From a virus (taxonomy: Duplodnaviria; Caudoviricetes): 64,000 nt of DNA. The stretch is from IMG/VR virus record IMGVR_UViG_3300027983_002389; one strand, written 5' to 3'. The translations under genes and the position numbers were made by a program. This document shows positions 4,431 to 55,165 of this stretch, piece after piece. Every line of letters begins with the position of its first letter. Position 1 is the stretch's first letter. The notes under the pieces were generated by a model that saw only the letters and a program-made list of their open reading frames with translations, ran no database searches and was not told the origin of the DNA.

Positions 4431-4608
4431 CTTAAATTTAACATTTAACATTTAACATTAAAGCCGCAAGGCTTTCGTTGATTCCAATGACTGTACAGAG
4501 AATGTGTACCCGAGTTCTGGCTAAGACGTTATGGCTGCTTGTCAGCGGGATTATCATCTTCATCAGCAACCCCACAGTAATGTGGAGATGCAGGTTCGAT
4601 CCCCCCGG

Positions 4609-4670
4609 CATTCAACATTCAACATTCAACATTCAACATTCAACATTCAACATTCAACATTCAACATTCA
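4609..4670 (+). repeat. (CATTCAA)n, about 9 copies
   Basis: Direct reading; related (ATTTAAC)n at 4436-4459. Confidence 0.95.
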
Positions 4671-4758
4671 GTGTGTCCTTTGCCCGGTCACGTGACGGGC
4701 GAAGTTAAGGCCCTGTGAGATCGAGTACGTTAACCCGGTTGGCGAGTTGGTCAGGTCA

Positions 4759-4806
4759 ACACTCACACTCACACTCACACTCACACTCACACTCACACTC
4801 ACACTC
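4759..4806 (+). repeat. (ACACTC)x8
   Basis: Direct reading; lies immediately before the SD of 4824. Confidence 0.95.
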
Positions 4807-4823
4807 AACAGGAGACTCAAACG

Positions 4824-6010: not shown

Positions 6011-6134
6011 TATTGTGTGGCCTCCCGGCAGTCACATATGGTTAGCGAAGCCGGGACTTTGCGAAAAAAGATTTTTCTTGAAAAAGTGAACCTTTTTTTG
6101 ATTTGAGTCGTCTATAATACAGAAGAGAAAATGT

Positions 6135-6193
6135 AGCGGGTTGGAGGCAAGGCTCATAACCTTGAGACACTGGTTCGAGTCCAGTACCCGCCA
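6135..6193 (+). pseudogene. tRNA-Met(CAT) lacking the D arm
   Basis: CAAGG-CTCATAA-CCTTG, T arm and acceptor intact; D arm absent compared with the copy at 6221. Confidence 0.7.
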
Positions 6194-6220
6194 CTAGGTC
6201 GAAAGACCTTGAAACAATGA

Positions 6221-6294
6221 CGTAGGGTGGAGCAGTTTGGTAGCTCGCAAGGCTCATAACCTTGAGGCCGCAGGTTCAAATCCTGCCCCTACCA
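6221..6294 (+). tRNA. tRNA-Met(CAT), initiator-like C1:C72 mismatch
   Basis: Full cloverleaf, loop CTCATAA. Confidence 0.85.
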
Positions 6295-6295
6295 C

Positions 6296-6324
6296 TTTAC
6301 AAGTCGAAAGACTTGTGGTATAAT
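6296..6324 (+). promoter_or_regulatory. sigma70-like promoter of the leader and tRNA array
   Basis: TTTACA-17-TATAAT with TGG extension. Confidence 0.8.
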
Positions 6325-6340
6325 ACTGAAGTTCGATTAA

Positions 6341-6410
6341 CAACACAACACAACACAACACAACACAACACAACACAACACAACACAACACAACACAACA
6401 CAACACAACA
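6341..6410 (+). repeat. (CAACA)x14 in the 5' leader
   Basis: Direct reading. Confidence 0.95.
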
Positions 6411-6435
6411 CGGCTCGTTGCCGTAATCAGGAGAC

Positions 6436-6570
6436 ATGACAATGTTCGTTCAAATCACCAATATCGGTCGCTGGCATAATGGGCAACAAGTCCAGCCGCA
6501 GACAAAGTGCGCCCCCGCAGTGCGCACTTTCGTCGCCAATAAAGGTAATGAAGATACATTGCCTTCCTGA
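6436..6570 (+). CDS. putative 44-aa leader peptide
   Basis: AGGAGA SD, ATG to TGA; MTMFVQITNIGRWHNGQQVQPQTKCAPAVRTFVANKGNEDTLPS; followed by alternative hairpins and a terminator. Confidence 0.6.
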   Translation: MTMFVQITNIGRWHNGQQVQPQTKCAPAVRTFVANKGNEDTLPS

Positions 6571-6630
6571 CCGAACCATACAAGTTCGGCTCAGGATACC
6601 TGAGTCGGACTGAAACAATAAAGTTTCAGC

Positions 6631-6667
6631 AAAAACCCACTCAGGTAAAAACCTGAGTGGGTTTTTT
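6631..6667 (+). terminator. intrinsic terminator / attenuator
   Basis: AAAAACCCACTCAGG-TAAAAA-CCTGAGTGGGTTTTTT. Confidence 0.85.
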
Positions 6668-6680
6668 GTTGGATTTTTAT

Positions 6681-6755
6681 TGCCGGGGGTTCTGTGCTGG
6701 TACGGAAACTTGACTCTGAATCAAGATGACGTAGGTTCGATTCCTACCCCGGCAG
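6681..6755 (+). tRNA. tRNA-Gln(CTG)
   Basis: Cloverleaf, loop CTCTGAA. Confidence 0.8.
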
Positions 6756-6851
6756 CTTGGTTGAAACGACTTTTTGGAGAATGATGATGCTGACACACCG
6801 ATATAAACAGATTCGCTGAGAGGGACGTGTTGCCCTACGGGGCCACAGCAA

Positions 6852-6934
6852 GCGCTCGATGCTGAATTGGTTGCAGCTCCAGACTTTTAATCTGGTTCCG
6901 AAAGGACGTGTGGGTTCGAGTCCCACCGGGCGCA
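6852..6934 (+). tRNA. tRNA-Lys(TTT) with long variable arm
   Basis: Loop CTTTTAA; variable arm TTCC-GAAA-GGA. Confidence 0.75.
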
Positions 6935-6984
6935 TTATATTGGCTTTTATCAAAAGTTTTTGTTAAAAGCTGCATAGATAGTGT

Positions 6985-7479
6985 ATGAAAAAATGCACTA
7001 TTTGTAAGTTGGAAAAGAAGGAAGCTGAGTATAGTAAAAACAGATGTCGAAATGATGGTCTTCAAAACGTATGCAAAAATTGTAATGCACTGCGTTCAAG
7101 ACAGTATTATCTTGAAAAAACCGACGAGCATAGAGAGACAACAAAACTCCGTCGTAATAAGAAACGCCTAGAGCTAAAAAAGAAAATTGATGAATTAAGG
7201 GCGTTGTGTGGGTGTGCGAAATGTGGAGAACAGGATTATGTGTGTATTGATTTTCATCATACTAATCCCGAAGAAAAAGATTTCAATGTATCAATGTCTA
7301 CATCTTATGAGTGGCCTTGGTCCAAAGTTTTAGAGGAAGTATTGAAGTGCGTTTGTCTTTGTGCAAGTTGTCATCGAAAACTGCACGCCGGAAGGTTTGT
7401 GATTGAACCTAGTATGCTTTGTCAGATTGCATTAGAGACAAAAGGTTATGAAACTGCAAGATGTGACGGGAATGAGTGA
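6985..7479 (+). CDS. HNH endonuclease
   Basis: CxxC zinc motifs, IDFHH...KC..LCASCHR.LH. Confidence 0.85.
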   Translation: MKKCTICKLEKKEAEYSKNRCRNDGLQNVCKNCNALRSRQYYLEKTDEHRETTKLRRNKKRLELKKKIDELRALCGCAKCGEQDYVCIDFHHTNPEEKDFNVSMSTSYEWPWSKVLEEVLKCVCLCASCHRKLHAGRFVIEPSMLCQIALETKGYETARCDGNE

Positions 7480-7867
7480 CGCTGATCCGATTCATCGTTA
7501 CTTAGGGATGGTGGATAAATTCCTTGGGGATCACGATTGGTCTGACACCTATCGTAAACTCCTACAGGGCGAATTGATTGAGGCGATGTGGTTATGCCTC
7601 GGTCATCCAGTCCAATATCCAATAGTTGAAGATTATTGCCTCGATAACTTCGAGGAATATCTGAAACAAAAAGGCGAACCTGTAATCGCCGAAATTGTCT
7701 ACAAGTTGAGGCGACGAAAAGGGGAAGAAGGAATTGATAACCACGGTGTTCGAGTTGTTGTCATGTGGCTTGTTGCCAATATGGATGACCTGAAGGCAAG
7801 ATATTTGGAGGAAAGAAATCACCATCGGAAAATAACAGCCGATTGGGGTCCAAGTATGGTGATGTGA
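7448..7867 (+). CDS. hypothetical protein
   Basis: ORF with SD AAAGG. Confidence 0.6.
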   Translation: MKLQDVTGMSDADPIHRYLGMVDKFLGDHDWSDTYRKLLQGELIEAMWLCLGHPVQYPIVEDYCLDNFEEYLKQKGEPVIAEIVYKLRRRKGEEGIDNHGVRVVVMWLVANMDDLKARYLEERNHHRKITADWGPSMVM

Positions 7868-7872
7868 AATAT

Positions 7873-7962
7873 TTTCCGGTACGCTAATTGGTAAGCGGCG
7901 AAGCTGTTAACTTCGTGCAATCCGTCTCGCACGGTATGAAGGTTCGAGTCCTTCCTGGGGAG
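7873..7962 (+). tRNA. tRNA-Asn(GTT) with long variable arm
   Basis: CGAAG-CTGTTAA-CTTCG; T arm GAAGG-TTCGAGT-CCTTC. Confidence 0.7.
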
Positions 7963-7987
7963 CTTGTTCCCGATAGGGAATAAAAAA

Positions 7988-8049
7988 TCCCGTTCGGGAA
8001 TAAATGGTGTTCATCAGCAATGATTTACATGATTTATTCCCGAACGGGA
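7988..8049. repeat. 18-bp perfect inverted repeat
   Basis: TCCCGTTCGGGAATAAAT (7988-8005) / ATTTATTCCCGAACGGGA (8032-8049). Confidence 0.85.
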
Positions 8050-8053
8050 ATGA

Positions 8054-8127
8054 CGGGGTGTGGGCTAAAGGTGAGCCGCCTGATTTGGGATCAGGACATC
8101 GAGTGAGTTCGATTCTCACCACCCCGA
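8054..8127 (+). tRNA. tRNA-Pro(TGG)
   Basis: Cloverleaf, loop TTTGGGA. Confidence 0.85.
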
Positions 8128-8163
8128 CTGATTTTGTTCTTTGACAATTTGGTTGCCAATTAT

Positions 8164-8235
8164 GGCCTGTTAGACTTCGGGTGAGGTCGTCTGCTTCTCA
8201 GGCAGAATAGGTGGGTTTGACTCCCACACAGGTCA
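8164..8235 (+). tRNA. tRNA-Glu(CTC)
   Basis: Loop TTCTCAG. Confidence 0.75.
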
Positions 8236-8242
8236 TTTATAT

Positions 8243-8313
8243 GGGGCGCTGGTATAACGGGATTACGTCTGCTTTGCAAGCAGATTATCGGGGTTCGATT
8301 CCCCGGCGCTCCA
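8243..8313 (+). tRNA. tRNA-Ala(TGC)
   Basis: G3:U70, loop TTTGCAA. Confidence 0.9.
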
Positions 8314-8321
8314 CTGAATTT

Positions 8322-8395
8322 CGGCATATGTTGTAGTGGTTTCTGCAAGCCGTCCTGATAAGACGGAAGTTCTGGTTCAATTCCAGGTATGCCGA
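8322..8395 (+). tRNA. tRNA-Ile(GAT)
   Basis: Loop CTGATAA. Confidence 0.85.
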
Positions 8396-8473
8396 CTGAA
8401 TTATGGAATTTATGGTGTAAAAAATAAAGACTTGCCGCACAGCAAAGAGTCTTGGATGGTACAAAATGATTAT

Positions 8474-8545
8474 AGGGACGTGGTGCAAAGGCTAACATGG
8501 CAGTCTCCAAAACTGTTGATCTCGGTTCGAGTCCGAGCGTCCCTG
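8474..8545 (+). tRNA. tRNA-Trp(CCA)
   Basis: Loop CTCCAAA, discriminator G. Confidence 0.85.
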
Positions 8546-8567
8546 CTGATTGGTTCTCGACAGTCAT

Positions 8568-8640
8568 TCCCTTGTAGCTCAATTGGTAGAGCGGCACGCT
8601 GTTAACGTGAAGGTTCTAGGTTCGAGTCCTAGCGAGGGAG
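8568..8640 (+). tRNA. tRNA-Asn(GTT)
   Basis: Canonical cloverleaf. Confidence 0.9.
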
Positions 8641-8660
8641 CTAGTTTGAAGTTTTTATAT

Positions 8661-8736
8661 TGCCGGGTATTCGGTGTTGGTATCCGTTCTCTGTCTTTGA
8701 AGCAGAAGGTCGCTGGTTCGATTCCAGCCCCGGCAG
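8661..8736 (+). tRNA. tRNA-Gln(TTG)
   Basis: Loop CTTTGAA. Confidence 0.75.
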
Positions 8737-8765
8737 CTTGAGTGGTGACTCTATAGTGTTGTTGA

Positions 8766-8836
8766 TACTCTATAGTGTAATGGTAGCACACAACACTTTG
8801 ACTGTTGTAGTCATGGTTCGAGTCCATGTAGAGTAA
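8766..8836 (+). tRNA. tRNA-Gln(TTG)
   Basis: Loop CTTTGAC. Confidence 0.85.
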
Positions 8837-8839
8837 TTT

Positions 8840-9091
8840 GAGGGTAGTAGTGTGAATAGCCGACTGAGGCATCTTCACAAAAGTTGAAGGAAGTGCAAAG
8901 CTAAAACTGCAAGCAACAATTGCAAAAGCTATAAAAACCGTGAGTTAGGGGCAGGGCCTAAACAGGCTTGTAGACAATAACTTTGCACAGAGATCAATGA
9001 GTAGTGTTTTGAAGTAGGTTGGTAGGCAGCACAGAGGCATAAGCATTTGCAATTGGAGCCTTTGGTTTAGGTTCGAGTCCTAACGCCCTCG
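8840..9091 (+). ncRNA. about 250-nt RNA with tRNA-like ends
   Basis: GAGGGT/GCCCTC-G; TTAGG-TTCGAGT-CCTAA; internal GTGCAAAG/CTTTGCAC. Confidence 0.6.
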
Positions 9092-9119
9092 CTTGTTTGT
9101 TTGATGATTGTTGATTTAC

Positions 9120-9192
9120 GGTTCCGTGGTGTAGTGGCACTGCATACCTCCCTGTCACGGAGAAGGTGCGAGTTCGATTCTCGTCGGGACCG
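9120..9192 (+). tRNA. tRNA-Asp(GTC)
   Basis: Loop CTGTCAC. Confidence 0.85.
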
Positions 9193-9194
9193 CT

Positions 9195-9266
9195 GTGATT
9201 GAAGCCAAACGGTGCGGCGTCTCTTTGTGAAAGAGATAATAGTGGGTTCGACTCCCATCAATCACC
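9195..9266 (+). tRNA. tRNA-His(GTG), no encoded G-1
   Basis: Loop TTGTGAA, C73. Confidence 0.8.
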
Positions 9267-9277
9267 TGTTAGTTTTT

Positions 9278-9350
9278 GGGCGTGGAGTTCGGTCGGTAGA
9301 ACATCCCCCTGTCACGGGGAAGGTTGCGGGTTCAACTCCCGTCACGCTCG
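9278..9350 (+). tRNA. tRNA-Asp(GTC)
   Basis: Loop CTGTCAC. Confidence 0.85.
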
Positions 9351-9359
9351 CTGTTGAAT

Positions 9360-9431
9360 GCCTTCGTGGTATAGTGGTATTGCGCTTGCTTGGTAAGCAA
9401 GAAATTCTGGGTTCGATTCCCAGCGATGGCT
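9360..9431 (+). tRNA. tRNA-Thr(GGT)
   Basis: Loop TTGGTAA. Confidence 0.8.
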
Positions 9432-9434
9432 CTT

Positions 9435-9507
9435 GATCTTGAAGCTCAAATGGATGAGCGACCACTTGTCTAGTGGAAGGTTGTAGGTTCGACTCCTACT
9501 GAGATTG
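9435..9507 (+). tRNA. tRNA-Asp(GTC)
   Basis: Loop TTGTCTA. Confidence 0.7.
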
Positions 9508-9571
9508 CTATGTTCATTAGGTCTGCTAACTTGATGAACAGAAATGTTGCAGCGAATGGCAGTTCGTATGA

Positions 9572-9648
9572 GGGTGTGATCGTCTAGGTTGGTCTAGGAC
9601 ACCCGCCGTTTGAGGCGGGAGACATGGGTTCAAATCCCATCACATCTT
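9572..9648 (+). tRNA. tRNA of undetermined type (Glu-like body, 8-nt loop CGTTTGAG)
   Basis: Good acceptor, D and T arms; abnormal anticodon loop. Confidence 0.6.
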
Positions 9649-9659
9649 CGCAACTTTGT

Positions 9660-9732
9660 GTGTATGTGGCCGAGCGGCAAAGGCGCTAGTTTTCCAAACT
9701 GGTTTAGGTGGGTTCAACTCCCTCCATACACT
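9660..9732 (+). tRNA. tRNA-Gly(TCC)
   Basis: Loop TTTCCAA, U73. Confidence 0.8.
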
Positions 9733-9740
9733 CAATTTTT

Positions 9741-9819
9741 GACCGTGGAAACGAAAGCTCCGTGGTGGAGCATCAGACTGCAAATCTGATGTTAAGAGGT
9801 TCGACTCCTCCTGCGGCCT
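9741..9819 (+). tRNA. atypical tRNA-Cys(GCA), apparent 8/4 fold
   Basis: TCAGA-CTGCAAA-TCTGA; 4-bp T stem; 8-nt connector AAACGAAA; U73. Confidence 0.6.
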
Positions 9820-9821
9820 CT

Positions 9822-9891
9822 GGCCATGTTGATGTAACGGTAGCAGGAAACCTTAAATGGTAATTTGAGTGGTTCGACTCCACAGTGGTCA
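9822..9891 (+). pseudogene. degenerate tRNA
   Basis: T loop TTCGACT and partial acceptor; anticodon arm broken. Confidence 0.5.
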
Positions 9892-9901
9892 TTTATTTTA
9901 T

Positions 9902-9972
9902 AGCTCGTCCTGTGGATTCAGGCGTTGGGTCTACGAAACCCGATTGGATAGGTTCGATTCCTTCACGAGCTA
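9902..9972 (+). tRNA. atypical tRNA-Arg(ACG)
   Basis: Loop CTACGAA; no nt 8-9 linker; 6-bp anticodon stem. Confidence 0.75.
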
Positions 9973-9980
9973 CTTGATTT

Positions 9981-10051
9981 GCCCGGTTGATGAAATGGTA
10001 TCGTGTCTGCATTACAAGCAGAATTCGGGGGTTCGATTCCCTCACCGGGTA
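9981..10051 (+). tRNA. tRNA-Val(TAC)
   Basis: Loop ATTACAA. Confidence 0.8.
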
Positions 10052-10063
10052 CTGAGTATTTTT

Positions 10064-10135
10064 GGCCCATTCGTCTACTGGCTAGGACCGCTGTTTTTCA
10101 GGCAGCAGAAGACGGATCGAAACCGTCATGGGTCA
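10064..10135 (+). tRNA. tRNA-Glu(TTC)
   Basis: Loop TTTTCAG. Confidence 0.75.
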
Positions 10136-10138
10136 CTT

Positions 10139-10289
10139 AGTTATTGGATCAATTAGTGTAACGGCAGCACGCCTCCGTGGAGGGGGAAGAGTGGTTCGAT
10201 TCCAATACCAACAACTAAATGAGACAAATTAGTGTAACGGTAGCACGCCTCTCACCAAGGGGAAGATTGGTTCGATTCCAATACTCATT
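10139..10289 (+). ncRNA. tandem pair of tRNA-like RNAs with 5-nt anticodon loops
   Basis: Near-identical D and T arms; loops GTGGA (10177-10181) and CACCA (10253-10257); bulged acceptor stems. Confidence 0.55.
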
Positions 10290-10292
10290 TAT

Positions 10293-10374
10293 GCCGGGTT
10301 CGCATAGCGGCGATTGCACAGGTTTTGTAAACCTGCGGAGTTATCCCTCGTGGGTTCGAGTCCCACACCCGGCT
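10293..10374 (+). tRNA. tRNA-Thr(TGT) with long variable region
   Basis: Loop TTTGTAA. Confidence 0.75.
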
Positions 10375-10403
10375 CTGAACATTTAACCTTTTGGGGAAAT
10401 ACT

Positions 10404-11127
10404 ATGGTGCGTCTTTGGCTCGAAACTGTGCGGATTTAGACCAACGGGTCGGTTACACTTAGGTCATTATTTCTCGGTGATTCAACCGGGACAGGCTGGG
10501 TGTACTGTACTGGTGGCAAACTATCATGCACCGGAGGTAAATAATCTGGAAGTTTCCGTGAACGCCTTACGGCAATACGGTGTCCAGACCATAGTGATTC
10601 AGAAGGATGTGTTTAACGCTGAATTGTTTTTTCGATTATTGACGCTCGCAAAAATGGGTGATCTTGGTCGAATGACACAATTCAAGTCAACGGAAGAGGA
10701 CGATAGAACTGGTCAATTGCTGACTTATCCTGTTCTTATGGCGCATGATGTTGCGGGTTACTCCGAGGTCATTGTGGGTCTGGATCAGAAGCAGCATTTG
10801 GAATATGCCAGAAAGCTGTTGAAAAAATACAACAGTGTATATGGCACGACATATCCAATCCCGATAGCCAATATCGTGGTGGGACGTGTCAAAGATTTGC
10901 GTGATCCGACGAAGAAAATGTCGAAGTCATCGCCGCAGGGATGTTTATTCCTTGATGATACGGTGGATGATATTCAACAAAAGATTCGGAAGGCGACCGC
11001 AGATGAAGAGGGCCTGAATAACTTGAAGTTTTTGTATGGGGAGTTTGTAAGAGAAACGCCTCCAACAAGCAATCAAGAACTGAAAGAGAAACTGGCTAAT
11101 TCGATTGTTATGCGTCTAAGGTGTTAG
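10404..11127 (+). CDS. trpS: compact tryptophanyl-tRNA synthetase, expressed via putative +1 frameshift at 10413-10419
   Basis: GFRPTGRLHLGHY (HIGH), YPVLMAHD, VGLDQKQHLE, KMSKS; the HIGH segment lies upstream of the listed GTG start. Confidence 0.85.
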
Positions 11128-11184
11128 TGGCAGCATACTTGGCTCTTAACCAAGATGGTTCCGGTTCAAGTCCGGGTGGACGCA
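11112..11184 (+). tRNA. tRNA-Lys(CTT), overlaps the trpS stop
   Basis: Loop CTCTTAA. Confidence 0.85.
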
Positions 11185-11189
11185 CTTGA

Positions 11190-11320
11190 TGAATGGGATG
11201 TGAGTACCTACTAGGGGAACCGAATTGATCTCATAAGGGTCAAAGTCAGGACTTGGTAAAAGTCACAAGTTGCCCTGACCGGGGCTTGTGACATAGCGGG
11301 TTCGAGTCCCGTTCATTCCA
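11190..11320 (+). ncRNA. tRNA-like RNA (CAT-like arm) with pseudoknotted variable region
   Basis: T arm GCGGG-TTCGAGT-CCCGT; crossing helices GTCAGG/CCTGAC and GTCACAAGT/GCTTGTGAC. Confidence 0.55.
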
Positions 11321-11329
11321 CTTATTTAT

Positions 11330-11401
11330 GGCGTGTTCGACTTCTGGTGAGGTCATCTGCCTTTCAAGCAGATTAGATGAGATCGAAACTCATACACGTC
11401 A
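11330..11401 (+). tRNA. tRNA-Glu(TTC)
   Basis: Loop CTTTCAA. Confidence 0.8.
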
Positions 11402-11736
11402 CTTGTTGGTGAAAGAGTTCATATACAGTTGCCCAAAATAAGGGCTACCAGGGTCATTTGAAGGCCACTGGAGAACTGGAATATTGGCCACCTGAAACCA
11501 ACAAAACGATTGAGAAAACCGAAAGAGATCGACAGCAGGCTTTCCGTCAAGCAACGCACGACGACGGCATTCAAAGTGTGAATAGAAATAAAGAGTATTA
11601 TGCTGTCGGCCACCTTTTGGTGATTTCTTTCACAACGGTTAGAGGGTTTGTACTCGACGCCGTGGATTGCCAATCTTGGGTGGGCGGCATTCCGAAAGTG
11701 CGATCTTTGACAATTCGGTAGAAATAAAGCCAAGAT

Positions 11737-11871
11737 GTGTCTGTGGTGTAAGCTGGTTTGGAGCAACGTGGAAACACGAAACACTACATTGCACGTGAAA
11801 TCATAATTCCGGCAAGACCGGGCTATATGATTAGCGTCTAATGCAATAGAGGTCGATTCCTTTCAGGCACA
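11737..11871 (+). ncRNA. tRNA-like RNA with inserts in D and anticodon loops
   Basis: GTGTCTG/CAGGCAC-A; ATTGCA/TGCAAT encloses a long hairpin; 3' 16-mer TTCCTTTCAGGCACAC present three times in tandem. Confidence 0.6.
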
Positions 11872-11933
11872 CTTCCTTTCAGGCACACTTCCTTTCAGGC
11901 ACACTTCCCGATCCAGAAATGGATCGGATTTTT

Positions 11934-12086
11934 GACTTGTCGTTCGTCTAAATATACGCTTCGGTGTATCTCAGGACGCCCGCACCGCTAACGCCCGCAC
12001 CGCTAATGCCGCTCAGCGGTTTGATGTGATAGGTTAGGTTGGAACTTCTCAAGCCGGGAGACGCAAGACGAACTTGCACGACAGTC
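11934..12086 (+). ncRNA. degenerate tRNA-Glu-like RNA with D-loop and anticodon inserts
   Basis: TTGTCGT/ACGACAG; TCGTCTA...AGGAC D arm holding ATACGC-TTCG-GTGTAT. Confidence 0.5.
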
Positions 12087-12093
12087 TTTATAT

Positions 12094-12166
12094 GGTGATC
12101 GTAGTGTAGTGGTCTGCACGACTGATTGTGGATCAGTAAGTGGGAGTTCGATCCTCCTCGATGACC
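12094..12166 (+). tRNA. tRNA-His(GTG) with G-1
   Basis: Loop TTGTGGA. Confidence 0.85.
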
Positions 12167-12268
12167 CTTGATATTTTTTCAAAATGGTTCACTCTTTTAA
12201 GTCGGTATTGATCGACTTCGAGATTCGGATATACTGATCTCGTCTCAACCTTAGAAAGAGAGAAAAAT

Positions 12269-13075
12269 ATGGACCCAAAATATACTGTCGGGCAAAAGGT
12301 TCTTTTTGCCAATCAAGAAGCCATTATTCGCAAGTTTGAAGAAAATGACGGAGTAGTCAAGTATTACTGCGAAGTTGGTGGTGTTCCGCTGACCATGTGG
12401 ATTCCTGAAGATTCTTTGGATGTCGGAAACCCTTCTGGACCGCCATCTGTATTCTTCAATCGCAGAATGCCACATTTGATGGTCGTAGATAATTTCTACA
12501 AAGACCCCGATGATGTGCGAGCTTTTGCCTTGGAGCAAGACTTCAAGCCGAACTTGAACAACTATAAGGGAAAGAGAACCGAGGAACGATTCCTGTGGCC
12601 TTTCCTCAAAGAAGAGTTTGAACGACTATTGGGTCGTCCGATTGTTGACTGGTTGAACCAGCCTTGCAATGGCTGCTTCCAGATTACTGGTTTCGATGAT
12701 CCGTTAGTTTGGCACTCGGACTTGCAGAGTTACGCCGCTGCGATATATTTGACGCCAGATGCCCCGGTAACTGCTGGGACGAGCTTCTGGAAAGATAAGA
12801 CACACGGAAGTCGCCGTCCGCCAAATCACCCGCTTGAGTTCGACCGATTCGATTCAGATGAAGCACGAGCTTTAGCGGCCAGTGAGATTTACAGCGGATA
12901 CAATATCCTTCACCCGGATAATTGGGAATTGGTCGATAAATTTGGAGCCGTATACAATCGGCTTGCAATTTGGGATGCTCAAATGATCCACTCGGCAAGT
13001 TCCTATGAAGGCATGGTAAGTGGCGATCCTGATAAGGCTCGACTTGTCCAATTGTTTTTCTTTACCGTAAGGTAA
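12269..13075 (+). CDS. 2OG-Fe(II) oxygenase-like protein (DUF6445-like)
   Basis: VVDNFY.DPD.VR, H.D, IYLTP, GTSF, YNR..I....HS, RL.Q.FF. Confidence 0.75.
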   Translation: MDPKYTVGQKVLFANQEAIIRKFEENDGVVKYYCEVGGVPLTMWIPEDSLDVGNPSGPPSVFFNRRMPHLMVVDNFYKDPDDVRAFALEQDFKPNLNNYKGKRTEERFLWPFLKEEFERLLGRPIVDWLNQPCNGCFQITGFDDPLVWHSDLQSYAAAIYLTPDAPVTAGTSFWKDKTHGSRRPPNHPLEFDRFDSDEARALAASEIYSGYNILHPDNWELVDKFGAVYNRLAIWDAQMIHSASSYEGMVSGDPDKARLVQLFFFTVR

Positions 13076-13078
13076 TCA

Positions 13079-13357
13079 ATGTCTTTCCGGCTGAGTAAAA
13101 AAGTTTCTCTCGAAAAAGGCGACAGGATACGAGTATCCGGTGGTCCTTATTTTCTCACTCAAGCCGGAACAAAAATCAACATGGGCGAGCGAGGAGTCGG
13201 GACATTTGTGGGATCGGAAGAAAACGGCGAGGCGATATACGTCAAATTTGACCGCACGTCTGCCCCAAGATTTGTATACATTGGGCCTGAGCGTTTATCG
13301 GAATCAACCGGGACAACGCTCAGGCCACATAAAATCGTCAAACTACGAAAGAAGTAA
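13079..13357 (+). CDS. hypothetical SH3/KOW-like basic protein
   Basis: LEKGDRIRVSGGPY. Confidence 0.55.
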   Translation: MSFRLSKKVSLEKGDRIRVSGGPYFLTQAGTKINMGERGVGTFVGSEENGEAIYVKFDRTSAPRFVYIGPERLSESTGTTLRPHKIVKLRKK

Positions 13358-13601
13358 GACCTTTGCTACACCGAACATTGTTGGCGACTTGCGGGTTTGA
13401 TTTCCCTGGTCTCAGTGTTTTTTCGAGGACGCCGTGCTTCGTGAGAATACGAACGACCTGCATTAGATCAGCCGATAGACTGCCTGGATGCCGGTATCCG
13501 GTTTCGAGGATGAATCGCACAAGTTGAACGTGGTTCACACCTTCGGGATGAACGTACACGGCATTGATGACGAGTTGCCGAAGGGTTTCTCGGTTTTTCA
13601 T
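13338..13601 (-). CDS. hypothetical winged-helix-like protein
   Basis: ORF with AAGGA SD on the minus strand. Confidence 0.5.
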   Translation of the reverse strand: MKNRETLRQLVINAVYVHPEGVNHVQLVRFILETGYRHPGSLSADLMQVVRILTKHGVLEKTLRPGKSNPQVANNVRCSKGLTSFVV

Positions 13602-13718
13602 GGCACTGATCCTTGAATTGTTTATAATTTACTTTGCCGATAATGGAACCGGCTACAAGTGTTTTTCTTAACACCCAAAGATTAGTCAAGCAAAGTTTGT
13701 GCCAACGGGAGAAAAGAG

Positions 13719-14051
13719 ATGTGGTATGTTCTGGATGACCAAAATGAACCAATTCCTGCGGACACGTTGGTTGCTGATCGGTTCCTGGAAGACCAGGGTG
13801 TGCGACGAACTGTCGCATACGACGCCATGCTTGACGGCAGTTTGTTGTCCACGGTGTTCATGTGTTTAGATCACTGCATGGGTCGTTCGGACGGGCCGGT
13901 TTTGTTCGAGTCGATGTGGTTTGGTGGTCCTCATGACGGGCATCAGCGACGGTACAAAACTTGGACTGAAGCTGAAGAAGGTCATGCCGATATGTTGGCG
14001 GCATATGGGGAATATCTGACCTATATGGCAGATAAATTAGCGAAGATGTGA
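13719..14051 (+). CDS. conserved-looking phage hypothetical protein
   Basis: STVF..LDH...P.LFESM.FGG...Q.RY.TW.EA..GH. Confidence 0.7.
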   Translation: MWYVLDDQNEPIPADTLVADRFLEDQGVRRTVAYDAMLDGSLLSTVFMCLDHCMGRSDGPVLFESMWFGGPHDGHQRRYKTWTEAEEGHADMLAAYGEYLTYMADKLAKM

Positions 14052-14055
14052 TTAT

Positions 14056-14126
14056 GCGGCCATGATGTAGTGGTAGCCTGTTTGCTTGCCGAGCAAGAAG
14101 TGCGAGTTCGATTCTCGCTGGCCGCT
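14056..14126 (+). tRNA. tRNA-Gly(GCC)
   Basis: Loop TTGCCGA. Confidence 0.8.
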
Positions 14127-14168
14127 TTAATTTCCATATAACCTCCACTATATAACAGTGGAGGTTAT

Positions 14169-14576
14169 ATGGAAACAACAAATTCAAAAGGTGACTTAGC
14201 TGTGGCTAAGGTTCATTTGCTTTCTATTGAAAAAGGTTTTATTGTAAGTAAACCATTATCGGATTCTGCTCGATACGATTTAATTGTTGATGATGGGGCC
14301 TTGAAAAGAACGCAGATTAAATATGCCGATGGAAAAGGATCGCACGGATCACAGGGCGTTGTTCGAGTTGCTTTAGAAAAGAAGTACAAAGACAAAATTC
14401 TTTTTTATTCGGAAAAGGATATTGATTTGCTTTTGGTTTATATTCCTAAAATAGATCGAATTTGTGCATTCAAATCAGATATATTTGCAGGAAGAAAAAA
14501 TTTGTATATTAGATACGAACCTGCTAAGAACGGGCAAAAAAAAGGTTGTCTTAGTGCGTCTGATTATTTTTGGTAG
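14169..14576 (+). CDS. PD-(D/E)XK endonuclease (group I intron-associated type)
   Basis: KGD.A..., VSKP..D..RYDLIVD....KR.QIK, Y...DID. Confidence 0.8.
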   Translation: METTNSKGDLAVAKVHLLSIEKGFIVSKPLSDSARYDLIVDDGALKRTQIKYADGKGSHGSQGVVRVALEKKYKDKILFYSEKDIDLLLVYIPKIDRICAFKSDIFAGRKNLYIRYEPAKNGQKKGCLSASDYFW

Positions 14577-14579
14577 TAT

Positions 14580-14651
14580 GCGACTATGGTGTAGAGGTTG
14601 TCACGCTTGCTTGCCAAGCAAGAGGATAGGGTTCGAGTCCCTGTAGTTGCT
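14580..14651 (+). tRNA. tRNA-Gly(GCC)
   Basis: Loop TTGCCAA. Confidence 0.8.
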
Positions 14652-14710
14652 CTGAGGTTCTCTTGGTGTGAGGCCAGGGGCTAAGTAGAATGCGAGTTCA
14701 GCCTTTTCAT

Positions 14711-14781
14711 GGCCCATTCGTCTAATGGCAGGACGTAACCCTCTCACGGTTAAAACAGGAGTTCGATTCTCCTATGGGTCA
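14711..14781 (+). tRNA. tRNA-Glu(CTC)
   Basis: Loop CTCTCAC. Confidence 0.85.
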
Positions 14782-14790
14782 CTGGTATTT

Positions 14791-14914
14791 GCCGGGTTAG
14801 CTCAATGGTAGAGCGCCAAAAATACTCTCAGCAATATTTGGGCTTCGGCCATGCTCGTTGGGATTACATTCCATTCTAAGGAGGAGGTTGTTGGTCCGAA
14901 TCCAACACCCGGCA
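14791..14914 (+). ncRNA. Y-RNA-like tRNA mimic, copy 1
   Basis: tRNA acceptor, D and T arms; anticodon replaced by a stem containing ATATTTGGGCTTCGGCCATGC, shared with 38250-38372. Confidence 0.7.
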
Positions 14915-14916
14915 CT

Positions 14917-15753
14917 ATGATTTGCGTATACCTAGTAAACGAAGAACCGGCGTATATTGGGATGTTGTCCCTTAGCCTTAAAATGCTGCGGCAGCACAAT
15001 CCAAGTGTGCCAGTTGTCGTTTACTATGTCCAAGATGGCAAACGAGACTCTCGAAGAATTCCACTGACAGAGATAACCAGAGCTTTGAATAAGTTGCCGA
15101 ACGATTATTTATCGTTCAGTAACTTGTGCGAAGAACTCAATGTCGAAGTTCGAGTTCGTAAGTCAAAGCAAGAAGAGGCATATTACTCTTTGCATCGCCT
15201 ATTGCTGCAAGAGATTGAAGAAGAGACAGTGCTTCTGTTAGATGGCGACACGTTCATATTTGGCAATATTGAGGGGTTCCCTCAGATGTATGCTGGATAC
15301 GATTTTGTGGCAACGCCGAATTCTTGGGGTATGGTCCATCCGGTTCCTGGTTTAGACCCCAACTTCAGATCGTTTAATTCTGGCGTCGTGCTGTGCCAGA
15401 ATGGTGTTTTCAAGCGATGGATGGATTCAATTGGCGATTATTGTCAAAGGTTATATGATGGTTGCCATCCACAGTCAGAGTGGTTGTGGAGCGTAAGTGC
15501 AGAATGTGCTGGAAGAGAAGAGTTGGCAGCGAGTTTGTTTGTTTTGGACAATGGCTTGAAGTATAGATACTTCGAGAATGAGCATGTGCAAATGGGGAGT
15601 TACGATAGTAACGCCCGCATATTGCACACACTAAGTCCAAATTGGCATTCATTATACAATGAATGCTTTAAGCCACAGCGTAAAAGGCTTTTCAAGCCAC
15701 GCTTAAAAAATGATGCAGATGCCGGTGGTCAAACAGATAATGATCTTGATTAG
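14917..15753 (+). CDS. glycosyltransferase (GT8-like)
   Basis: LLLDGDT DxD motif, FNSGVVL; start at ATG 14917 after the RNA. Confidence 0.7.
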   Translation: MICVYLVNEEPAYIGMLSLSLKMLRQHNPSVPVVVYYVQDGKRDSRRIPLTEITRALNKLPNDYLSFSNLCEELNVEVRVRKSKQEEAYYSLHRLLLQEIEEETVLLLDGDTFIFGNIEGFPQMYAGYDFVATPNSWGMVHPVPGLDPNFRSFNSGVVLCQNGVFKRWMDSIGDYCQRLYDGCHPQSEWLWSVSAECAGREELAASLFVLDNGLKYRYFENEHVQMGSYDSNARILHTLSPNWHSLYNECFKPQRKRLFKPRLKNDADAGGQTDNDLD

Positions 15754-16129
15754 CCACCAAAGGCCGATGGCAATACCGCCAATTCCTAATCCGAACAACC
15801 AAGTTTTGAATGATTTAAGTTTAGAAATGAACTTATCCTTGTCCATATGTACCTCCTTGAATACGATATACGATATAAGGTATATATGCAGGTGACTACT
15901 ATGAAAAACAAGAAGACCGCAAAGCAGTTGAAAAAGCAAGAAAAGCGTGAACATCGTGTAACAATAGCTAGCTGTCCATGCTAAGTGCGATTGTGGCTGT
16001 TGCACGGCGACGATGCGATTCAAAAACAAAGTCAAAAGCAGGGCTTGCTAATTCGGCAACAATAGTTGATGATGAAGGCGTCGTTCAAGAAATTTGCCTA
16101 CCATTGGCACACCTCAGAAAGTACACAGC

Positions 16130-16354
16130 ATGGATTTTCCAGCCCTCGTCAAAGCCGAATTAGAAAAAGCTCGTCGCAAGCATCCTGGCGAACAACGCAA
16201 CCTTCATGAAGGTTATGCGGTGATTCTTGAAGAAGTTGATGAGTTTTGGGATGTGGTGAAAAGCCAAAAACCCGATACGGCTCATGCGTTAGAGGAACTG
16301 GTACAGGTTGCTGCTATGTGTCAGCGAACTGCGGAAGACGTGTTGGGTCAATAA
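16130..16354 (+). CDS. MazG-like all-alpha NTP pyrophosphatase
   Basis: EGYAVILEEVDE...EELVQVAAM. Confidence 0.65.
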   Translation: MDFPALVKAELEKARRKHPGEQRNLHEGYAVILEEVDEFWDVVKSQKPDTAHALEELVQVAAMCQRTAEDVLGQ

Positions 16355-16355
16355 T

Positions 16356-16430
16356 CAGGCTGTAGCTCAGTTTGGCTAGAGCGCTTGGCTGGGGGCCAAG
16401 AAGTCGCAGGTTCAAATCCTGTCAGCCTGA
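16356..16430 (+). tRNA. tRNA-Pro(GGG)
   Basis: Canonical cloverleaf. Confidence 0.9.
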
Positions 16431-16444
16431 CTGATACATAGAAT

Positions 16445-16515
16445 GCCTCATTGGTCTAATGGTATGATACTTCTTTCGTAAAGAAGTTGCAGGGGTTCGA
16501 TTCCCTTATGAGGCT
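16445..16515 (+). tRNA. tRNA-Thr(CGT)
   Basis: Loop TTCGTAA. Confidence 0.85.
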
Positions 16516-16521
16516 CTTTAT

Positions 16522-16591
16522 CGCTATGGTGCTGGGTACACAGTTGTCTCTCATAAGGACGACGTGGTGAGTTCGATTCTCACCTTAGCGA
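16522..16591 (+). tRNA. atypical tRNA with CAT anticodon (Met or Ile2)
   Basis: Loop CTCATAA; no 8-9 linker; 6-bp anticodon stem. Confidence 0.65.
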
Positions 16592-16645
16592 CTCTATTTG
16601 TGTGAGGAAATGTGTCTTTCATTGACACCGACACTACATAGTTTC

Positions 16646-17569
16646 ATGTTAAAACATGCGACATATGAAAAAGTCAAACATCTAATTGGCACTCGACCCG
16701 GCATCATTGTAACCAACGCCTGCAATTTATCATGCGGTGGTTGTTATGCCCAATGTGGAAAATTCTCAAAGGAACAAATGTGGTTTATTTCGATGGATCA
16801 ATTCATCGAAAATCTTGAGTATATCATTGAATACATGTACCGTGGCAAAGTGATTTTGTTTAACGGTGAATCAGTCGATGTTAATTCTCAATCCAATGGC
16901 ATTGATTTGATTGGAGGAGAGCCAACTATTCATCCTGAATGGGGTAAAATTTGGGAACTCATAACGACAAAATATCAAAAAATAAAATTCTTGGTTTCGA
17001 CAAACGGCAGGATAAGTTTCCCACCAGCCAGCAATGTGGATTTTCATCTAGCATATAAAACCAAAACTGTGGGACTTGATTTCGTCTCAACCTTGGTGGC
17101 TCCAATAGATATTATTGGTAATCCAGATCGAAATTATTATTGGCAAACTGCTCAAACAGATTGTGGCATTTGGAAGTCGTTGGGGTGTGTTAATCCCATT
17201 TACAAAAATTCGATTTCTATTTGTTCAGTTGCTTCTTCCTGGAGCGATCTGTTGGATTTGGATTTATGCTGGCCGCTCACACCAGGAAAAAACCCATTTT
17301 CTGAATTAACAGACAAAGACATTAGAGCTATGGCCGAGCAGGTTTGCTATCGTTGTGGTTGGTCAAAAAAAATGGACTTACCTGAGAATCAGCAGTCACA
17401 GTTATATGATTTGGTGAGCGAAACCAATCTTGAAGTTTTGATTAAAAATCCTAGAAACAAACCGTACAAAGTGATTTCCCGAGAAGGAGATCAGTTGAAA
17501 CTTAGTGAGTTGAAAAATTCAAAAAACGACTTAGTGTCTTTGACGTACAAGGGAAGTGCGTTGTTGTGA
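16646..17569 (+). CDS. radical SAM protein
   Basis: CNLSCGGC, GGEPTIHP, STNG. Confidence 0.85.
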   Translation: MLKHATYEKVKHLIGTRPGIIVTNACNLSCGGCYAQCGKFSKEQMWFISMDQFIENLEYIIEYMYRGKVILFNGESVDVNSQSNGIDLIGGEPTIHPEWGKIWELITTKYQKIKFLVSTNGRISFPPASNVDFHLAYKTKTVGLDFVSTLVAPIDIIGNPDRNYYWQTAQTDCGIWKSLGCVNPIYKNSISICSVASSWSDLLDLDLCWPLTPGKNPFSELTDKDIRAMAEQVCYRCGWSKKMDLPENQQSQLYDLVSETNLEVLIKNPRNKPYKVISREGDQLKLSELKNSKNDLVSLTYKGSALL

Positions 17570-17602
17570 AATTTTGCTGGAGTCAATTTTCTACATAATT
17601 GC

Positions 17603-18187
17603 ATGTTAAAGTGTCAACCCATAGATTTATTTTGGCAGGACTTGGTTGATTGGCTCGTTTTTTTTGGGCATGATCGCAATCAGGTTGTATGCGGCTCAAT
17701 GCCAAAAGAGACGATTCTGCGTCTTTCTCAAATATTGACTGGTAATGGATTGCAGATTGGTGGTTTCGTTGGTGTGGCTCATTGTTGCTTGGCAAGGATG
17801 TTGTCCTACAAAGGCACAATTTGCACAGTGGACCCTAACTTAACTCATCGGGATATTAAAAATCCACTCCTTGTGCTTTTCCAACTTGTCCAACATTTTA
17901 ATCTGTCAAGCAATTCAATGTTGGTCTGTGGACATGCTAATGAGCAGATGAGAATATTCGCTGCGATGGGTATGAAATTTGATTTCATCATATTGGATGG
18001 AAATCATGATTACTCTTTTGTCGCAAATGAAATCAAGCTGGCCGATCCGATTCTCAAATCGGGCGGCTATTTGGTTTTAGATGACATTGACTATTGGGAT
18101 GGTCCTAAAAAGGCTATTGACGAAACCTTGCCGGGTTATGTCCGTATCGAACTGGACTCCAGAGCAGGACTTTTGCAGAAGAAATGA
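17603..18187 (+). CDS. class I SAM-dependent methyltransferase (Methyltransf_24-like)
   Basis: FDFIILDGNHDY...LKSGGYLVLDD. Confidence 0.8.
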   Translation: MLKCQPIDLFWQDLVDWLVFFGHDRNQVVCGSMPKETILRLSQILTGNGLQIGGFVGVAHCCLARMLSYKGTICTVDPNLTHRDIKNPLLVLFQLVQHFNLSSNSMLVCGHANEQMRIFAAMGMKFDFIILDGNHDYSFVANEIKLADPILKSGGYLVLDDIDYWDGPKKAIDETLPGYVRIELDSRAGLLQKK

Positions 18188-18222: not shown

Positions 18223-18251
18223 TTTACAACAGAAATAACCTGTGGTAGAAT
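18223..18251 (+). promoter_or_regulatory. sigma70-like promoter
   Basis: TTTACA-17-TAGAAT with TGG. Confidence 0.7.
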
Positions 18252-25747: not shown

Positions 25748-25808
25748 GCCGACCATACATAAGCCGACCATACATAAGCCGACCATACATAAGCCGACCA
25801 TACATAAG
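25748..25808 (+). repeat. 15-bp tandem repeat x4 (GCCGACCATACATAA)
   Basis: Direct reading; upstream of the clpS SD. Confidence 0.9.
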
Positions 25809-54297: not shown

Positions 54298-55165
54298 GTG
54301 AGTAAGAGCAAGACTAAGCACAAAATGTACGCAACTGGCAGCACTGGCAGCACTGGCAGCACTGGCAGCACTGGCAGCACTGGCAGCACTGGCAGCACTG
54401 GCAACAACTCGGCGTCGGGCTGTCTTTAGCAATCCAACCACTCTCCTCCTCGAACTTCATGGCGGGGAAGGCGGCGAAGATTCTAAGTTATTCGTTGCCG
54501 ATTTACTTGAAACCTATCTCAAATATGCTTCCATCAACGGCCTTAAATACGAAGTATTGACCCAAGAGCATGGCCACGCCATTGCCAAAGTCATGGGCAA
54601 GGGCGTTTGGAAAGCATTTCAAAACGAGCCGGGTAAGCACGTCGTGCAACGTGTACCTCCCACTGAGCGAAGTGGTCGTCGGCAAACATCCATCATTACG
54701 GTTGCTGTGATGCCGTTGCCTCCTGAGAACACTCAGGAGCCGCTTGATGAAAAAGACCTGAATATTATCTGCCAGACGGGCAAGCAAGGCGCAGGTGGAC
54801 AAAACGTCAACAAGGTGGCGTCTGCTGTTCGCATGAAGCATAAGCCAACTGGAATGATGGTCTTCATTAACGGACGAGATCAAAAGCAAAATCTTGATGA
54901 GGCTTTGCGAATTCTGACCTTCAAAGTCAATGAGCAAAAACGACTCAAGGTCGAGGGTGATTACAATCAGTCTCGGAGAACTCAAATGTTGAGTGGTGGA
55001 GACAGAATTGGCGGTAGAGGCGATAAAGTTCGCACCTACAACTTCATTCAGTCTCGTGTGGTCGATCACAGGCTTGGTCGCAAGACCTCGAACGTCAAAG
55101 AATTCATGAAAGGCAATTTTGCCCTTCTGTTTGATGGGGATACCGCAGGTCAGGGCGAAGAGTAA
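54298..55165 (+). CDS. RF1-type class I release factor, expressed via putative +1 frameshift at 54424-54430
   Basis: LE...GEGGEDS.LF, VQRVPPTE..GRR.TS (PxT), GAGGQNVNK, KVRTYNF; GGAGA SD and GTG 54298 are in a different frame. Confidence 0.85.
54334..54403 (+). repeat. (ACTGGCAGC)n, about 7.8 copies, in-frame TGS repeat
   Basis: Direct reading. Confidence 0.95.

Follow-up and report, generated by a model that had tools for sequence, protein, structure and literature searches.

A putative ribosome-dependent transcription attenuator within the tRNA gene array of a huge phage

The tRNA genes of phages are usually seen as supplements to codon usage or as replacements for host tRNAs that are degraded or cleaved by defence nucleases in the course of infection (PMC10264068, PMC11555353), and the control of their expression has hardly been addressed so far. 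A locus in a 64,000-nucleotide (nt) stretch of viral DNA (Duplodnaviria; Caudoviricetes; IMG/VR record IMGVR_UViG_3300027983_002389), here called the window, raises the question of whether translation may open and close such genes. ARAGORN finds 40 tRNA genes in the window, and protein matches point to a huge, uncultured phage of fresh water. At positions 6296-6667 it carries a promoter, a short open reading frame (ORF) and a chain of overlapping RNA helices ending in an intrinsic terminator, and a tRNA-Gln gene follows. From the sequence alone, an original prediction had read this unit as a leader-peptide attenuator that senses a general shortage of tRNA. Does a ribosome on the short ORF decide whether the polymerase reaches the tRNA genes? 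Comparison of the unit with its relatives reveals two alternative RNA conformations, both of which are supported by covariation in natural sequences, and suggests that the unit is probably a ribosome-dependent transcription attenuator gating the tRNA array. That the signal sensed is the general supply of tRNA is a more tentative proposal.

The promoter, the repeat, the Shine-Dalgarno (SD) sequence, the ORF, the overlapping helices at 6571-6589, 6587-6607 and 6639-6658 and the terminator that had been described can all be read in the sequence, at or within a few bases of the positions given for them. The elements on which the argument is built are the following, with lengths of paired regions in base pairs (bp).

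6296-6324, + strand: promoter P2, with TTTACA, a 17-nt spacer and a TG-extended TATAAT, 11/12 consensus matches
6430-6433, + strand: Shine-Dalgarno sequence GGAG, 8 nt before ATG 6442
6442-6570, + strand: leader ORF, 42 codons from the conserved ATG, with the stop TGA at 6568-6570
6543-6564, + strand: H0, an 8-bp hairpin in the last codons of the ORF
6565-6576, + strand: segment A, which spans the last sense codon, the stop codon and 6 nt beyond it, and pairs with B
6584-6596, + strand: segment B, which pairs with A or C
6597-6611, + strand: segment C, the partner of B in hairpin H1 (13 bp, 6583-6611) or of D in the antiterminator
6610-6629, + strand: H2, a small hairpin that forms in either state and in the antiterminator lies within C:D
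6636-6647, + strand: segment D, the 5' arm of the terminator, which pairs with C or E
6651-6667, + strand: segment E (6651-6661, the 3' arm of the terminator) and the U-tract (6662-6667)
6681-6756, + strand: tRNA-Gln(CUG), the first gene that would be gated, beginning 14 nt past the U-tract (ARAGORN)

The intrinsic terminator (6631-6666, 16 pairs followed by a T-run) is the strongest match to such an element between 4 and 32 kb, and the only strong one, and the 346-nt stretch folds far better than shuffled sequences do (z = -9.35). The helix CCGAAC/GTTCGG of the original prediction (6571-6576 with 6584-6589) is present, but it is only part of a longer helix A:B of 12 bp with one bulge, in which 6565-6576 pair with 6584-6596 and which includes the stop codon of the ORF. 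The proposed antiterminator between CCTGAGT and the 5' arm of the terminator likewise exists and shows covariation, but as a helix C:D of 11 bp (6597-6608 with 6636-6647) and not of 7. Our own early view, that the ORF ends too far upstream to reach the switch and that H1 always sequesters C, was dropped since the stop codon belongs to the 12-bp A:B.

Proteins encoded next to the unit led to a 340-kb IMG/VR contig with a homologous unit and to one more distant contig, and a profile of the three leader peptides then gave 14 protein clusters with 41-48 residues, together with one over-extended call. This makes 15 distinct homologous units in all, that of the window and those of 14 other huge-phage contigs. 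Exact scans for the terminator and for an invariant 26-nt block of the ORF, which is described below, found only one sister contig in IMG/VR, and the same scans of metagenome contigs found five copies of one further strain. In bacterial and archaeal genomes such an exact scan found none, and a DNA search of the INPHARED phage collection returned matches to tRNA-Met only and no relative of the unit.

When the RNAs were folded at full length, the terminator was present in 15/15 sequences, and the complete set of H0, H1 (B:C), H2 and the terminator (D:E) was found in 13/15, L021 being without H2 and L024 folding the H1 region differently. The terminator, with its G+C-rich stem of 10-16 bp and its U-tract (6631-6667), is conserved and shows compensatory changes. 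A different structure was obtained by prefix folding, in which the RNA of 14 sequences was folded only to the terminator loop, before E exists. The minimum free energy (MFE) structure then contained H0, A:B and C:D in 14/14, with no unpaired base between the three helices. In these prefix folds A:B has 11-13 bp; C:D, which encloses H2, has 8-11 bp, and as many as 16 bp in the two sequences (L021 and L025) in which it is merged with H2. The core motif of D, YUCAGG, is kept even in homologues in which the terminator leaves it unpaired, as for instance in L016.

The original prediction had named covariation in related phages as a way of checking it, and on this point it is borne out for both conformations. 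Covariation was assessed on a plain MAFFT alignment (A4), which was fitted to neither structure. For the antiterminator state 85.1% of the cells are paired and 12 pairs show a change on both sides; in 500 shuffles its values for cells paired, double-changed cells and covariation score were never reached. The corresponding values for the terminator state are 88.7% and 15 pairs, and in a control with the partners slid by 1-3 columns the pairing was at most 51% in both states. Among the individual helices, B:C has 91.5% of its cells paired, C:D 89.6% (5 pairs changed on both sides) and D:E 91.6% (6 pairs), and the lower half of A:B covaries. Changes in segment B are accompanied by changes in both A and C: the L016 and the L019/L021 types, for example, depart from the window at the same positions of B, and A and C are altered to match. 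Column 75, the final base of the H1 loop, is unpaired in the terminator state; it pairs with the column just after the conserved core of D (column 129), and this in C:D only. The pair is AU in 5 sequences, GC in 5, UA in 3 and GU in 1, with one mismatch, which on a neighbour-joining tree takes no fewer than 3-4 independent double changes, and one of these separates the window from its closest relatives (permutation P = 8.5e-5 for all sequences and 0.005 for one sequence per clade). Two further single events, C-to-U with G-to-A in L017 and G-to-A with C-to-U in L020, fit C:D only or best.

The calculated energies are in line with a switch that depends on the order in which the segments are made. 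In the window, once C has been made, the A:B state lies at -26.1 and the B:C state at -28.8 kcal/mol, with a direct-path barrier of ~11.5 kcal/mol between them. With D made, the antiterminator state is predicted to be favoured (-47.8 vs -35.2 kcal/mol), and with E made the terminator state (-60.4 vs -47.8 kcal/mol), behind a barrier of ~11 kcal/mol. The same ordering is found in 13/14 sequences, the other being L005, in which the A:B state stays slightly lower even with C made. Across the sequences, as long as E is missing, the antiterminator has an advantage of about 5-15 kcal/mol, and the later barrier to the terminator is 8-19 kcal/mol.

Co-transcriptional folding, also named as a check in the original prediction, gave a result in the same direction. 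The simulation was a heuristic of our own, in which the chain grows, compatible helices are added and a jump to the MFE structure is allowed only if the barrier is below a threshold. In the absence of a ribosome it ended with A:B and C:D and no terminator in 11/12 sequences at a threshold of 6 kcal/mol and in 10/12 at 8 kcal/mol, and with a ribosome on the stop codon it ended with B:C and D:E in 12/12, figures which, the heuristic being crude, show internal coherence and not rates. For the window the outcome flips when the leading edge of the ribosome is past 6564 (6564 and 6566 were tested), or when the ribosome lags behind the polymerase by about 70 nt or less.

Such a switch is placed under an ORF that looks translated. 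The 44-codon ORF of the original prediction (6436-6570) is present, but the ATG at 6436 is found in some strains only, and the start common to all, ATG 6442, gives 42 codons. In 15/15 homologues the ATG is preceded by a GGAG or AGGA motif, with competing motifs in two of them, and the spacing between SD and ATG is 7-11 nt among the homologues measured. Conservation of the ORF, on which the original prediction depended, is clear: the frame is open in 14/14 homologues, and in the codon alignment the homologous ORFs differ by in-frame gaps only, every one of the nine gap blocks being a multiple of three. Over the first 31 aligned codons the third position is the most variable (28/31 columns vs 21-22 for positions 1 and 2), and with a pS of 0.43 and a summed ratio of non-synonymous to synonymous differences (pN/pS) of 0.68 these codons appear to be under the weak purifying selection that one would expect of a leader. 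In every homologue segment A includes the stop codon (at 6568-6570 in the window). A 63-codon antisense ORF (6427-6618, - strand) overlaps the leader, and in the codon alignment the antisense frame is open in 13/14 homologues, as is expected for such a frame; the argument for translation therefore rests on the in-frame indels, the SD sequence and the fixed stop codon, and not on openness alone. Two further candidates were dropped. In-frame read-through beyond the UGA is not conserved in the relatives (sequences read by eye), and the unit is not a transfer-messenger RNA (tmRNA), since none is called by ARAGORN and the ORF comes with an SD sequence and an ATG.

What would be gated can be seen from the layout of the locus. 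The terminator sits between P2 and the downstream tRNA genes, and P2 is kept in 12/14 relatives. It is one of 10 copies of a promoter class, TTTACA-N13-GTGGTA(G/T)AAT, in the 64-kb window, and 9 of the 10 are on the + strand.

3324, 3422, 6296, 18223, 34738, 38637, 40048, 44167 and 49997, + strand, and 64000, - strand: copies of the promoter class, from a motif scan of the window

After 6296 the next copy on the same strand is at 18223, i.e. 12 kb downstream, so that ~27 tRNA genes and a few ORFs (6681-18000) are without another promoter of this class. The unit had been described as standing in front of the tRNA array, which does not hold: two tRNA-Met genes lie upstream, one of them (6221-6295) immediately so, and the unit is thus within the array. 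One to four tRNA-Met genes precede the unit in the 14 loci that reach far enough upstream, the contig of L026 being cut short. All non-Met tRNAs in these 14 loci are placed behind the terminator. The first gene after it is tRNA-Gln in 11 relatives and tRNA-Lys in L020, the contig of L022 ends before this point, and in the minor clade (L005 and L024) a short ORF comes first and then tRNA-Lys.

Taken together, these features suggest the following mechanism. Transcription of the leader would start at P2 or arrive by read-through of the upstream Met-tRNA transcript. If A is free when B emerges, A:B would form, C would then pair with D, and E would be left partnerless, so that no terminator would be made and the polymerase would go on to transcribe tRNA-Gln and some 30 further tRNA genes. 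The footprint of a ribosome extends about 12-15 nt downstream of the first base of the P site; a ribosome with the UGA in its A site would therefore cover 6565 to about 6580, i.e. all of segment A and the loop, and not B. A ribosome that is within the last five or so codons or on the stop codon before the polymerase clears the terminator would thus mask A, B:C and D:E would form, and transcription would end at 6667. The device would in effect read how closely the first ribosome trails the polymerase, with prompt translation as off and slow, stalled or absent translation as on. The original proposal, that a ribosome at the stop codon favours termination and a lagging one read-through, is in these models supported by the 15 units, the covariation, the stop codon in A and the prefix folds. 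We infer that the switch would control termination in vivo, with decoding capacity as its natural signal.

Several observations weigh against this reading or against parts of it. Four homologues have an A.C mismatch in the C:D core (column 80:124), which is compensated in D:E and not in C. L016 ends in the terminator in the simulation even without a ribosome, and the crudeness of that simulation has to be borne in mind throughout. No obvious pause site that would keep the polymerase in step with the ribosome was identified. The minor clade is without P2 and has a short ORF after the terminator. With respect to the signal, no codon run singles out one amino acid, the longest run of a single amino acid being Gln-Gln. 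The leader uses 18-19 different amino acids in 41-48 codons across the homologues, and the count of 19 of the 20 that had been given for the window is correct; this diversity is by itself not significant for one sequence (P about 0.07-0.15), though it is kept in all homologues, and the suggestion that the leader is a broad probe of decoding capacity is a weak one. It had also been suggested that the peptide loosely mirrors the tRNAs missing from the window. The residues in question (Leu, Ser, Tyr, Phe and Cys) indeed make up 9-14% of the leader vs 25% of phage proteins, but the match is loose and the argument from it weak. Finally, several residues of the peptide (W, GQ, CA and P) and its last ten are conserved, of which a pure sensor of ribosome lag needs none, and a 26-nt block at the end of the ORF (6538-6563) is invariant even at synonymous sites in the loop and flanks of H0, which are free of coding or stem constraint.

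This block, which occurs once in the window, is nucleotide-identical in 13/13 sequences of the major clade, and its pS is 0.05 vs 0.43 upstream. The last ten residues of the peptide, NKGNEDTLPS, are invariant in the same clade, and the stop UGA is followed by C in most sequences. This conservation hints at a further role of the peptide tail or of the RNA block, such as termination arrest, a bound factor or a tertiary contact. It is also what would be expected if a real two-state switch is set, not by the ribosome, but by a trans-acting factor bound to the invariant H0 block, be it a small molecule, a tRNA or a protein of phage or host, with translation of the ORF being secondary. H0 stacks directly on A:B, so that a factor bound to it could bias the formation of A:B. 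Such a factor would leave unexplained why the stop codon is inside A in every homologue and why the frame is kept through nine gap blocks, neither of which a translation-independent switch accounts for, and the minor clade has a different H0 sequence yet the same switch. Among known regulatory RNAs, no Rfam family reached its gathering score (28.1 bits vs 49 for His_leader, RF00514, and 29.8 vs 59 for the trpB motif) and there was no T-box match. On balance we hold control by such a factor to be unlikely.

It is tempting to speculate that NKGNEDTLPS together with UGA-C is a termination-arrest peptide within the proposed attenuator, which would hold the ribosome on the stop codon, and hence on segment A, for a time set by a signal. 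This reading would account for both the frozen peptide and the frozen RNA at the 3' end of the ORF, and we regard it as doubtful. In that case the signal, a cellular one, could come from the activity of a release factor, from a metabolite or from a factor of phage or host, and the tRNA gate would be a nascent-peptide sensor responsive to a ligand or a state, and not a simple meter of ribosome lag.

The invariant C-terminal decapeptide, in a peptide family with 14 clusters, could also belong to an ordinary gene for a small protein that has a promoter and terminator of its own, has been inserted in the array and makes a 42-residue product acting in trans. The alternative pairings would then affect only mRNA stability or translation termination, and the downstream tRNAs would come from other promoters or from transcripts leaking past the terminator. 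Action in trans is reported for a leader peptide, peTrpL (PMC7298713), and a weak promoter-like match is found at 6761-6788, just past tRNA-Gln. The codons upstream of the decapeptide argue otherwise, as the first 31 are under weak purifying selection only (pN/pS 0.68, as given above), and the leader peptide has no match in Pfam or PHROG. A plain terminator, moreover, needs no C:D helix that overlaps its arm and covaries at a position without a role in either hairpin. The 14 nt between the U-tract and tRNA-Gln leave no room for a promoter, and the next promoter of the phage class is the one at 18223. A small-protein gene is thus an improbable explanation of the unit. It is highly improbable that the ORF is incidental and the unit a structured non-coding RNA, such as a stable small RNA freed from the tRNA precursor: almost the whole transcript is helical, with a conserved 5' hairpin, H0, H1, H2 and terminator, and the antisense frame, open in 13/14 as well, makes openness weak evidence of coding, but all indels are multiples of three, an SD sequence and ATG are present in 15/15 homologues, variability is highest at the third codon position (28/31 columns vs 21-22) and the stop codon has a fixed place in the switch.

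The 5' untranslated region (5' UTR) and the surroundings of the proposed attenuator contain a number of other features.

6340-6411, + strand: perfect microsatellite (ACAAC)x14.4 in the 5' UTR, from a repeat scan
6410-6424, + strand: 5' UTR hairpin of 5 bp with a 5-nt loop, just upstream of the SD sequence
4432-4807, 11857-11908, 25748-25808, 54334-54403 and others: further microsatellites, from the repeat scan

The repeat had been counted in the original prediction, as (CAACA)14, among the parts of the attenuator. It is absent from 14/14 relatives, which at this position have an A/C-rich leader of 10-25 nt, one of them carrying the seed CACAACAC. We take it for an expansion within an A/C-rich 5' UTR that is particular to this strain and forms no part of the conserved device. 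The window has many other short, perfect tandem repeats (period 5-16, 3-9 copies), several of them in intergenic leaders. The 5' UTR hairpin covaries strongly, its outer pair being CG in 6, AU in 4 and UA in 2 sequences, with double changes at other pairs too. In the full-length MFE structure a GUUCG at the 5' end pairs with segment A; this GUUCG is present only in the closest strains and was not counted as a part of the device. The same structure has segment A (6565-6570, which contains UCCU) paired with the SD region of the ORF itself (6426-6433). From this model it could be that in the terminator state the freed segment A shuts off translation of the leader. The complementarity between A and the SD region is generic to any AGGA motif.

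The first of the two tRNA-Met copies upstream of the unit (6135-6193) has a 12-nt deletion in the D arm relative to the 72-nt gene of L001 and L013, with extra bases upstream. It was missed by ARAGORN, scores 40.5 bits with Rfam and may be a decaying or D-arm-less tRNA. The second copy (6221-6295) shows a 1:72 mismatch and has a body that seems close to E. coli tRNA-fMet; by its sequence it looks like an initiator tRNA. Directly 3' of each of the two lies a hairpin with a GAAA tetraloop (6196-6209 and 6300-6315), the latter in the spacer of P2 and with compensatory changes in its stem among the relatives. These hairpins could be a signal for tRNA 3' processing or an operator. Upstream of the Met tRNAs, a block at 6086-6118 consists of GTGAACC, a T-run and then GTCTATAAT. 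L001 and L013 have it in near-identical form and L005 in a recognisable one; it probably represents a second type of promoter, P1.

Elsewhere in the array, at 11857-11927, a 16-nt unit repeated 3.2 times leads straight into a terminator-like hairpin ~170 nt before tRNA-His, and there is no leader ORF of the 6442 type at this place. No comparable cassette was found behind the promoter at 18223 or ahead of tRNA-His at 12095. Other short ORFs near the leader in the relatives are not paralogues of it.

The proposed attenuator can be compared to those of amino-acid operons such as hisL (segments A-F; PMC4046918 for the mechanism in his) and trpL (segments 1-4). As in these, a short promoter-proximal ORF, here predicted to be translated, is followed by a chain of overlapping helices that ends in an intrinsic terminator, and the position of the leading ribosome would pick the helices, with termination predicted for a ribosome at the stop codon and read-through for a lagging one. 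The differences are equally clear. The unit has five switch segments, not four or six, and for this reason its untranslated default is predicted to be read-through, whereas that of his and trp is termination (PMC4046918). The run of regulatory codons typical of the class (trpL, hisL, leuL, thrL, pheL) is absent, the sensing segment is the region of the stop codon itself, and the gated genes are tRNAs and not biosynthetic enzymes. Of the properties of an attenuator in general, the unit has an ORF with a ribosome-binding site that is kept open, a terminator between the ORF and the genes, and an antiterminator that uses the 5' arm of the terminator. The overlap of the ribosome footprint with segment A, and the flip of the predicted fold when A is masked, are given by the geometry only. 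The codon run and an untranslated default to the terminator, both properties of amino-acid operon attenuators, were not found.

In leaders of the vmlR and mef/mel-msrD type, a ribosome held up in an upstream ORF lets transcription read through. Attenuation and antibiotic induction are described for vmlR of Bacillus subtilis (PMC9226507) and for the mef/mel-msrD leaders (PMC4335068, PMC10314930), and the likeness lies in a short upstream ORF with a terminator and in a signal that is the general state of translation and not one amino acid. Leaders of this type respond to particular antibiotics that act on the ribosome at specific leader codons, and they gate a resistance protein. In the phage unit, by contrast, nothing suggests a drug, the output is the viral tRNA array, and there is no sequence relation.

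A literature search found no published account of leader-peptide attenuation controlling tRNA genes. As both conformations are supported by covariation, the switch is defined well enough to be built into reporters directly. If the proposed mechanism is true, leader-peptide attenuation would be extended to RNA genes, to viruses and to a five-segment design of odd parity with an untranslated default that is on. The phage would then time a ribosome over a test message of 42 codons, and would open its ~30 tRNA genes only when that ribosome is slow.

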